Part shown: positions 60,253 through 61,582 of the stretch, piece by piece
Layout: the number at the start of each line of letters is the position of its first letter
How positions within the stretch are numbered: position 1 is the first letter of the stretch
NCBI GenBank assembly: GCA_002454955.1
Contig: DKJY01000166.1
Span: 427 to 64,426 of the forward strand
Length of the DNA stretch: 64,000 nt
Direction: 5' to 3'
Source: Bacteroidales bacterium UBA6680
Lineage (GTDB): Bacteria > Bacteroidota > Bacteroidia > Bacteroidales > UBA6680
Translations under genes and position numbers: made by a program
Notes under the pieces: generated by a model
Told to the model about the DNA's origin: nothing
The model's database searches: none
The model's input: only the letters and a program-made list of their open reading frames with translations

Positions 60253-61446
60253 ATGGGGCGTACATTAATATACCATATATTACCTCTGTTTATTGCAACG
60301 GTATGTTCAGCAATAATATTTAAGAAAACAGATATTGATAGAGTAATTATTGAAACAAATAAAATATCAATACCTCAAACAGAGATAGGAATATTTGATA
60401 ATTACAGATATGGTCTTCAGAGAGAGGCTGATGTAATATATGCATTAAAGAACCATACACTTATTGTTTTTGGTTCTTCAGAGCTTACCAGTGCAGATAG
60501 CTCAGGATTTCATTCAAATACATTCTTACCAAAGAATTTTAATATACCTACCCTGTGTGTAGGGCATGATGGGAATCAGTGTTTGTCGTTGCTATCGCAG
60601 TTAATGGCACTTAACAGATATGCCAGAGATAAAAAAATGGTATTTATAATTTCGCCGGGATGGTTTAACAAAGATTATGGCGACGGAACATCGGTAAACT
60701 CTTTTATTGAATTTAACTCATCAAGATTTTTAAAAAATATATTAACCGATACTATTCTGGATGATAAATACAAAAATCATCTGGCCGACTATGTTAGCGA
60801 TAACTATACCAATATATTAAATCCTAATATCTATATTAGAGAACTGAACTCAATGGCAGGATTTAAAATATCGTCTGTTATAGATTATCCTGCATTTAAG
60901 TTTCAGGATCTTATTAGCATTGATACAGAAACAAATCTGTACGAAGCCTTGAATATAAGAGAAAACAGAGATGTAAATATCAGAAAACCTGATATAAACT
61001 GGGCAGATATAGAGAGAGAAATAACAGAACGATTAGCCGTTACCTCAAATAATGTTGCCGGAGTATCAAATAAATACTACAGAAAATTTAGAAAAAGAGA
61101 GAAAAGACCAGAACATGCAATAGAGTTAAATGATAATATTCAGGAACTAAAAGACTTTAAGATGTTGGTATCGTTATGTCATGATCTGAACATAAATGCA
61201 GTATTTGTAATACAGCCGCTTAACCCATATGTCTATAAAGATCTTACAATATACAGACCTGTGATATCTGAAATAAAACAGACAATATCAGATAACTCAA
61301 TGCTCTGTCTTGATCTGTTTGAATATACAGAACAGGAGTATACAAAAGGTCATTTAATAGATGCAATGCATATGGGCGACCTGGCTTGGTTAAAGGTAAA
61401 TAAGTTTATATACGATAATTTATATAGTAATGAACAGAAAAATTGA
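60253..61446 (+). CDS. dltD: DltD-like SGNH-fold acyl transfer protein, N-terminally membrane anchored
   Basis: N-terminal TM helix. VFGSSELTS, KKMVFIISPGWFNK and a C-terminal DAMHMG align by eye with Bacillus DltD (YGSSELS, KKIVFIVSPQWFTK, DTIHIG), 397 aa. Confidence 0.8.
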   Translation: MGRTLIYHILPLFIATVCSAIIFKKTDIDRVIIETNKISIPQTEIGIFDNYRYGLQREADVIYALKNHTLIVFGSSELTSADSSGFHSNTFLPKNFNIPTLCVGHDGNQCLSLLSQLMALNRYARDKKMVFIISPGWFNKDYGDGTSVNSFIEFNSSRFLKNILTDTILDDKYKNHLADYVSDNYTNILNPNIYIRELNSMAGFKISSVIDYPAFKFQDLISIDTETNLYEALNIRENRDVNIRKPDINWADIEREITERLAVTSNNVAGVSNKYYRKFRKREKRPEHAIELNDNIQELKDFKMLVSLCHDLNINAVFVIQPLNPYVYKDLTIYRPVISEIKQTISDNSMLCLDLFEYTEQEYTKGHLIDAMHMGDLAWLKVNKFIYDNLYSNEQKN

Positions 61447-61582
61447 TTATAAAAAACTTGCACTTAATATAGTTGTATATATTATTATAATTGTTGGTTA
61501 TCTGTTTCTGTATAGCCCATATAATAAAGATAATAAATCAGAATCATCGTCTAAAACAGAGTTCATTTATCAACAATTCTAA
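61430..61582 (+). CDS. dltX: DltX-like 50-aa single-pass membrane peptide: MNRKIDYKKLALNIVVYIIIIVGYLFLYSPYNKDNKSESSSKTEFIYQQF
   Basis: This unlisted ORF overlaps the dltD 3-prime end by 17 nt and stops 3 nt before the dltB ATG. It has one hydrophobic helix. The C-terminal hexapeptide FIYQQF resembles the conserved DltX C-terminal Tyr motif (FIYNEF in firmicutes, from memory). Confidence 0.6.
   Translation: MNRKIDYKKLALNIVVYIIIIVGYLFLYSPYNKDNKSESSSKTEFIYQQF

Follow-up and report, generated by a model that had tools for sequence, protein, structure and literature searches.

The question raised by this locus is whether a very short open reading frame (ORF), wedged between the genes for a DltD-like transferase and a DltB-like membrane acyltransferase of the MBOAT family, encodes the DltX component of a Dlt system in a member of the Bacteroidota, bacteria that do not have teichoic acids. 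The stretch analysed here, referred to as the window, comprises 64,000 nucleotides (nt) of contig DKJY01000166.1 from Bacteroidales bacterium UBA6680 (assembly GCA_002454955.1). The micro-ORF very probably encodes a divergent DltX, that is, a microprotein of about 50 residues with a basic N-terminus inside the cell, a single transmembrane helix followed by a tail of some 23 residues ending in FIYQQF, which would take part in an acyl relay with the DltA-, DltC-, DltB- and DltD-like proteins encoded beside it.

The micro-ORF runs from an ATG at 61430 to a TAA at 61580-61582, and its translation (50 residues) is MNRKIDYKKLALNIVVYIIIIVGYLFLYSPYNKDNKSESSSKTEFIYQQF. Its first 17 nt are shared with the 3' end of the DltD-like ORF (60253-61446), and three nucleotides (ACT) lie between its stop codon and the ATG of the DltB-like ORF at 61586. 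With the family alignment as input, AlphaFold2 (AF2) predicted one helix at residues 7-27, with a predicted local distance difference test (pLDDT) score of 96 at residues 11-20, and a 23-residue tail that has no secondary structure and appears flexible. The hydropathy peak was located at residues 10-26 (mean Kyte-Doolittle value 2.62, averaged over 17 residues). The net charge is +3 on the N-terminal side of the helix and 0 on the C-terminal side, from which an N-in/C-out topology is predicted by the positive-inside rule. The position, peptide sequence, 17-nt overlap and 3-nt gap given in the initial annotation, which had been made from the sequence alone, were identical on re-derivation from the window, and the basic N-terminus, single hydrophobic helix and terminal FIYQQF that it described were matched by AF2, hydropathy and charge. 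Its statement that the ORF is too short for standard gene callers proved not quite right, because an identical protein and a 96% identical ortholog, MCT4640423.1, have been called in public collections, the latter under the label 'hypothetical protein'. In one source MCT4640423.1 is named 'predicted negative regulator of RcsB-dependent stress response', apparently through a spurious annotation transfer, and one Joint Genome Institute (JGI) name for the close ortholog is clearly unrelated.

Related loci were retrieved with the DltB protein and not with the micro-ORF, which avoids circularity. In all four of the first relatives (L001-L004), an ORF of 49-50 codons ending in F[IV]Y[QA]QF was found immediately before dltB; these relatives are a Bacteroidales metagenome-assembled genome (MAG) whose DltB is 92% identical to that of the window, together with Flavobacterium and Fluviicola loci with DltB identities of 42-54%. 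The next loci (L005-L009) showed the same gene order as the window, namely acyl carrier protein (ACP), DltD, X, MBOAT and AMP-ligase. The micro-ORF frame is under purifying selection: 8 synonymous and 2 non-synonymous changes separate the window from L001, giving a ratio of non-synonymous to synonymous substitution rates (dN/dS) of 0.05, and the ratios for the pairs L002/L003 and L004/L005 were 0.10 and 0.14, respectively. The initial annotation had pointed to conservation at the dltD/dltB junction of related Bacteroidota and to synonymous-substitution bias as ways to check the ORF; the frame and the terminal Tyr motif were kept in every locus examined, and the bias was found in all three pairs. 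The micro-ORF is a real gene, conserved and under selection. As a separate observation, L002 (a Flavobacterium MAG) and L003 (titled as a Hydrocarboniphaga daqingensis MAG) have a near-identical organisation, and their micro-ORFs differ at 5 of 50 residues; the gammaproteobacterial label of L003 may be a binning or labelling error.

Short ORFs occur often, and the G+C content of the window is 33%, so the micro-ORF might have arisen by chance in AT-rich spacer DNA. However, only 0.07 ORFs ending in F.Y..F would be expected from shuffled sequence among ORFs in the six frames of the window that start with ATG and have at least 30 residues, and two of the 194 such ORFs have this ending; the motif-bearing micro-ORF was moreover conserved in all 27 complete DltB-type loci described below. 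The probability of a chance ORF is negligible, and this candidate was ruled out by the conservation across loci, the dN/dS values and the exhaustive family search. It is also highly improbable that the micro-ORF is translated solely for coupling or regulation of dltB, with a functionless peptide as its product. The tight junctions would fit such a role: besides the 17-nt overlap and 3-nt gap of the window, the ortholog junctions always show an overlap with dltD and between a 1-nt overlap and a 3-nt gap before dltB, with overlaps or gaps of 0-2 nt among them. Nevertheless, it is the amino acid sequence that is conserved (dN/dS 0.05-0.14), and the motif is invariant across loci whose DltB proteins are just 32-54% identical. 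A read-through fusion of DltX and DltB was considered separately, as the two ORFs share the same frame in the window (TAA-ACT between them). It was rejected because orthologs do not keep this frame relation, their micro-ORF and dltB being 0, 1 or 2 nt apart or overlapping by 1 nt; the shared frame in the window is therefore probably incidental. The other window ORF ending in F.Y..F (14916-15809, forward strand) encodes a hydrophobic protein of 297 residues, which ends in ...FFLYLLF and has no Pfam match; its ending is probably a chance match within a membrane segment.

A homolog search with the 50-residue peptide as a single sequence returned no match besides itself. A profile built from five orthologs recovered 20 proteins at E <= 2e-11 in a word-index search, and an exhaustive search of 1.84 billion cluster representatives with the profile of these 20 yielded 64 matches at E <= 1e-3, of which 63 are 39-65 residues long with F[IV]YxxF at the exact C-terminus. 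The hexapeptide is present in all 81 members of the resulting family, and its F, Y and F do not vary; the second residue is always V or I, the fourth usually Q or A and the fifth usually Q. For the family, a net charge of +1.8 was obtained on the N-terminal side of the helix and of +0.4 on the C-terminal side. Within the helix region, Y17 and Y28 are invariant and L27 nearly so among the 20 close homologs, and Y17 and L27 are nearly invariant across all 81 members.

The occurrence of the micro-ORF was found to depend on the type of its MBOAT partner. Among 80 loci sampled with a DltB profile, the short DltB-type MBOATs (372-398 residues) have no motif of their own, and a separate motif-ending micro-ORF was present in 27 of 27 complete loci, usually directly upstream of dltB; in a 28th locus of this type its end is visible where the contig edge cuts through 'SFVYQQF*'. 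In contrast, the long MBOATs (about 460-500 residues, n = 51) themselves end in FxYxxF. Four loci seemed at first to be exceptions, yet each proved to have a micro-ORF, the causes being a contig edge, a non-ATG start, a YEYQQF variant and a length filter that had missed the ORF. This complementarity between split and fused forms reproduces the picture in the literature (PMC12148441), and it is difficult to explain unless the micro-ORF has a function. In the fused MBOATs, such as PatA and AlgI-type proteins, FxYxxF likewise stands at the extreme C-terminus, and its Tyr has been proposed or shown to carry the acyl group to an SGNH partner (PMC12148441). The motif of these proteins is located on the MBOAT itself after two extra transmembrane helices and the donor is an acyl-coenzyme A (acyl-CoA), whereas here a gene of its own encodes the motif, next to genes for a carrier protein and an adenylating enzyme. 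A third operon arrangement was observed in Opitutaceae, Propionibacteriaceae and Anaerovoracaceae, which have a short DltB of the His type and a motif-bearing micro-ORF about 1.2-1.5 kb downstream (Table 1). There the micro-ORF lies more than 1 kb from the start of dltB and the motif is still kept, which also argues against a role in coupling only.

Canonical DltX is a membrane microprotein with the motif FXYXXF at its extreme C-terminus, the invariant Tyr of which serves as an acyl shuttle: it takes D-alanine from DltB and hands it to the DltD serine (PMC12148441). This class of mechanism is known from Schultz et al. (2023), as summarised in later papers. The C-termini of known DltX proteins are ...STFIYNEF in Bacillus thuringiensis, NQAKFIYNEF in L. 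plantarum and FLYFGF in Streptococcus thermophilus (PMC11035591 for the last). The initial annotation had named a FIYNEF-like Tyr hexapeptide as the acyl shuttle; this was right, and FIYQQF fits FXYXXF (PMC12148441). The Firmicute proteins (PF12459; B. thuringiensis, S. aureus, S. thermophilus and L. plantarum) resemble the window microprotein in size (about 50 residues) and layout: a basic N-terminus leads into a single transmembrane helix that closes with Leu-Tyr, and a short tail outside the cytoplasm carries the terminal FxYxxF with its invariant Tyr. They are likewise encoded in an operon with DltA, DltB, DltC and DltD, in which the partner DltB has no motif of its own. The differences are that the window protein is only about 28% identical to Bacillus DltX and falls under the Pfam threshold, that its tail is about seven residues longer, and that the motif reads F[IV]Y[QA]QF instead of FIYNEF or FLYFGF. 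The family was linked to DltX by two profile results. When the 81 members were scanned against the 24,736 models of the Pfam library, 45 matched PF12459 at E <= 1 (best 2e-05), and any other Pfam family was matched by at most four members. A profile-profile alignment (hhalign) of the family with Bacillus DltX gave a probability of 92.4% and an E value of 5.2e-07 over 38 aligned columns covering the helix, the 'LY' pair and the motif, although the canonical profile consisted of Bacillus cereus-group sequences only and short transmembrane peptides can inflate such scores. An NCBIfam scan returned nothing for the microprotein nor for Bacillus DltX, so that library provides no test, and a PDB sequence search with the microprotein gave chance matches only and no DltX chain.

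The DltB-like partner differs from canonical DltB at the active site. In the local alignment, 'LMGLWNGF' of the window protein faces 'MGFWHGI' of S. thermophilus DltB, and MAFFT alignments including the latter confirmed that Asn316 occupies the column of His336. It has been reported that His336 is invariant and the active residue (PMC11035591), and for DltB and PatA the equivalent His has been described as required and universally conserved (PMC12148441). Asn was found in this column in 18 of 18 DltB proteins of the clade with the dltD-X-dltB arrangement, whereas His was found in all 22 other MBOATs sampled. The Asn-type clade spans four phyla and includes Bacteroidota, Halodesulfovibrio, Aliarcobacter, Photorhabdus, Achromobacter and Pluralibacter (L001-L025, L032, L152). 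A co-signature accompanies it: Ser replaces Tyr345 in 18 of 18, and Leu or Val replaces Phe400 (20-sequence alignment). The second active-site His is kept (S. thermophilus His289, corresponding to His268 of the window protein, codon 62387-62389), Asp249 and the Trp/Phe cluster are retained, and no conserved new His that might compensate was found in the alignment of Asn-type DltB proteins.

These substitutions could be taken to mean that the microprotein carries no acyl group and serves DltB and DltD purely as a scaffold or in their assembly, and that a DltB without the catalytic His uses another route. The replacement of His336 by Asn and of Tyr345 by Ser throughout the clade would fit, as would the conservation of Y17, L27 and Y28 in the helix and the known role of canonical DltX in bridging DltB and DltD (PMC12148441). 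However, conservation is strongest in the hexapeptide and not in the helix, with F, Y and F in all 81 members and always at the exact C-terminus, and proteobacterial members of the Asn-type clade have kept the motif as well; a pure scaffold would have no need of an invariant terminal Tyr. A scaffold without acyl transfer is thus quite improbable.

Among Gram-negative Proteobacteria, Dlt or Dra loci comprise Bordetella dra and the dlt loci of Photorhabdus, Dickeya and Pectobacterium. Genetic or biochemical data come only from proteobacterial systems (Bordetella dra and Dickeya dltB), for which Photorhabdus, Achromobacter and Bordetella hinzii were used as comparison sequences standing in for Dickeya and B. 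pertussis. The B. pertussis dra locus is cited as comprising the five genes BP2987-BP2991 and is reported to add D-alanine to an outer-membrane component; Dickeya dltB mutants are polymyxin-sensitive. Gram-negative DltX has been described as having the same topology without sequence similarity (Kamar 2017). The order dltC-dltD-micro-ORF-dltB-dltA of the window also occurs in Photorhabdus luminescens (L092 1433-5585) and Achromobacter xylosoxidans (L023 1682-5925), which suggests, from gene order, that one operon type may have spread horizontally among diderm phyla. Immediately before dltB the proteobacterial loci have, like the window, a micro-ORF, whose end fits [FY]-x-Y-Q-[QK]-F (FQYQQF, FEYQKF or YEYQQF), and their DltB likewise has Asn for His336 and Ser for Tyr345; B. 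hinzii has the same Asn and a micro-ORF ending in FQYQQF. They differ in that their DltB is only 32-34% identical to that of the window, that a simple search does not align the helix and tail of the microproteins, and that the Bacteroidota microproteins form a sequence cluster of their own. By analogy, the reports for Bordetella and Dickeya suggest that the Asn-type loci may be active. If the B. pertussis and Dickeya systems are of the Asn type and active, catalysis would differ in detail, and one possibility is a His...Asn dyad mirroring the eukaryotic Asn...His arrangement.

Several results weigh against identifying the microprotein as an acyl-carrying DltX. The window protein itself did not match PF12459 at E <= 10 and did not reach the gathering score of 25 bits; two orthologs scored 16.8 and 13.8 bits, also under the cut-off, whereas Bacillus DltX, the positive control, scored 75.7 bits. 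In the order C-D-X-B-A the gene follows dltD and precedes dltB, whereas in the Firmicute order dltXABCD it comes first, upstream of dltA; that position is typical but not strictly defining. With Asn in the catalytic His336 column, canonical base catalysis of Tyr acylation cannot be assumed. Finally, a Dickeya dltD mutant was reported to be as resistant to antimicrobial peptides as the wild type (Pandin 2016, cited by Kamar 2017). The comparison with DltX models proposed in the initial annotation therefore came out divided: the window protein had no PF12459 match, and the family did connect to DltX through the weak matches of 45 members and the hhalign result.

The Pfam results and the operon position are also what one would expect if the microprotein were a convergent analogue of DltX and not a homolog, perhaps an independently evolved, separately encoded version of the motif segment of a fused MBOAT. 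The proteobacterial micro-ORFs likewise have no DltX match in Pfam, Gram-negative DltX lacks sequence similarity according to Kamar (2017), and composition can inflate profile similarity between short transmembrane proteins. On the other hand, the hhalign probability of 92% extends over 38 columns including the helix-end 'LY' as well as the motif, and 45 of 81 members select PF12459 out of the whole Pfam library. The partners DltB, DltD, DltA and DltC are all homologous to Firmicute proteins, and the location of the gene upstream of dltB does not agree with a simple split of a C-terminal extension. Convergence is therefore unlikely, and a divergent DltX is retained as the explanation.

The operon reads dltC-dltD-dltX-dltB-dltA, with gltX upstream of it, and the coordinates of its features are listed in Table 1. 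The carrier protein likely starts at an internal Met at 59918 or 59939, since its orthologs have only 74-78 residues. Its top NCBIfam model was the ornithine-lipid ACP NF052616 (35 bits, cut-off 130), slightly above the DltC models that it also matched; every NCBIfam score of the carrier was far below threshold. It also matched carrier proteins in the PDB, including DltC 1dv5 and 6bug_A, with distant similarity. The DltD-like protein matched Pfam DltD (3.8e-47) and, under the cut-off, TIGR04092 (9.6e-40), and its FGSSEL and C-terminal D-x-x-H motifs align with the solved DltD structures 6pfx, 6o93 and 3bma. The DltB-like protein matched Pfam MBOAT (7.4e-14), TIGR04091 for DltB (6.3e-79, under the cut-off) and DltB in PDB entry 6bug (1.3e-43). 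The DltA-like protein matched solved DltA structures (2.4e-62), and for its full-length ortholog in L001 the best NCBIfam models were those for DltA (8.7e-113, under the cut-off). As the NCBIfam equivalog scores of DltA, DltB and DltD were all under their cut-offs, these are divergent Dlt proteins. The initial annotation had expected a complete and mechanistically competent relay if the ORF is a DltX. Completeness was borne out, as DltC, DltD, DltX, DltB and DltA are all present; competence is not fully established in view of the Asn in the His336 column of DltB.

Table 1 Features of the dlt-like operon in the window, and downstream micro-ORFs in loci of the third arrangement
Feature	Position	Strand	Remarks
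DltC-like carrier protein	59888..60169	+	maximal ORF 93 residues; LLDS phosphopantetheine-serine motif; Pfam PP-binding 2e-05
DltD-like SGNH transferase, 397 residues	60253..61446	+	N-terminal membrane anchor; FGSSEL serine motif (S75/S76); D-x-x-H near C-terminus
dltX-like micro-ORF	61430..61582	+	50 codons; single-pass membrane microprotein; C-terminus FIYQQF
Transmembrane helix, residues 7-27	61448..61510	+	from AF2 and hydropathy; preceded by basic N-terminus; closes at conserved Leu27-Tyr28
C-terminal hexapeptide F45-I-Y47-Q-Q-F50 (FxYxxF acyl-shuttle motif, putative)	61562..61579	+	Tyr47 codon 61568-61570; stop codon next
DltB-like MBOAT, 386 residues	61586..62746	+	no FxYxxF of its own; C-terminus ...FSGRFPFL
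Asn316 codon of DltB-like protein	62531..62533	+	column of S. thermophilus His336 (canonical MBOAT catalytic His)
DltA-like adenylating enzyme	62765..64000	+	cut at window end; 412 residues visible; L001 ortholog 503 residues
Downstream micro-ORFs (ends FIYAQF, FIYAGF or FIYVAF)	L026 5777-5938; L029 5845-6105; L040 5557-5721; L049 5596-5769; L050 5614-5778		

Elsewhere in the window, an ORF of 934 residues (54687-57491, forward strand) carries motifs of subtilisin type (GTSMACPHAAG), and its C-terminal region looks like the secretion-sorting domains of Bacteroidota; the C-terminal region of the next ORF (57663-58139) is similar to it.

For a divergent DltX, a relay of four steps can be proposed. 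The DltA-like enzyme would activate a small amino acid, probably D-alanine, and load it onto the DltC-like carrier. The DltB-like MBOAT would then move the acyl group through the membrane to Tyr47 of the hexapeptide, after which the flexible tail could bring the esterified Tyr to the serine in the active site of the DltD-like protein. In the last step DltD would transfer the acyl group to an acceptor in the envelope. The helix of the microprotein may in addition keep DltB and DltD together, as canonical DltX bridges them. The acylation of Tyr47, D-alanine as the cargo and the acceptor are what we infer by analogy with the known systems.

In a broader reading, the Asn-type loci of Bacteroidota, Campylobacterota, Desulfovibrionales and Beta- and Gammaproteobacteria would constitute a distinct diderm-type Dlt relay, with the fixed order C-D-X-B-A, a DltX subfamily of its own, and a DltB in which His336 is replaced by Asn and Tyr345 by Ser while His289 is kept. 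If active, this relay would use a His...Asn dyad, where others have His...His or, in eukaryotes, Asn...His, and an acceptor other than a teichoic acid. The chances of this reading seem to us evenly balanced. Unlike the Firmicutes, the hosts are diderm bacteria without teichoic acids, and their DltB has Asn and not His336. No published dlt operon or DltX in Bacteroidota or Flavobacteria, and no His336Asn clade, was found in a literature search of limited coverage, which makes this weak evidence.

The mechanism itself is already known from Gram-positive bacteria, and the advance made here is mainly a correct new annotation, which is modest and introduces no new principle. A microprotein that is publicly listed only as a hypothetical protein thereby acquires a name, together with a role that can be tested. 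The entire diderm branch escapes the DltX model now in Pfam, and the sampled loci provide a simple rule for annotation: either the MBOAT ends in FxYxxF, or a nearby micro-ORF does. The replacement of His336 by Asn calls into question the description of this His as invariant and required in MBOATs, and the clade thus represents a natural experiment on the formation of the Tyr acyl intermediate. Bacteroidota would have a complete carrier-protein-dependent relay for aminoacylation of the cell envelope despite having no teichoic acids, and the non-teichoic-acid acceptor of such a relay may bear on resistance to antimicrobial peptides.

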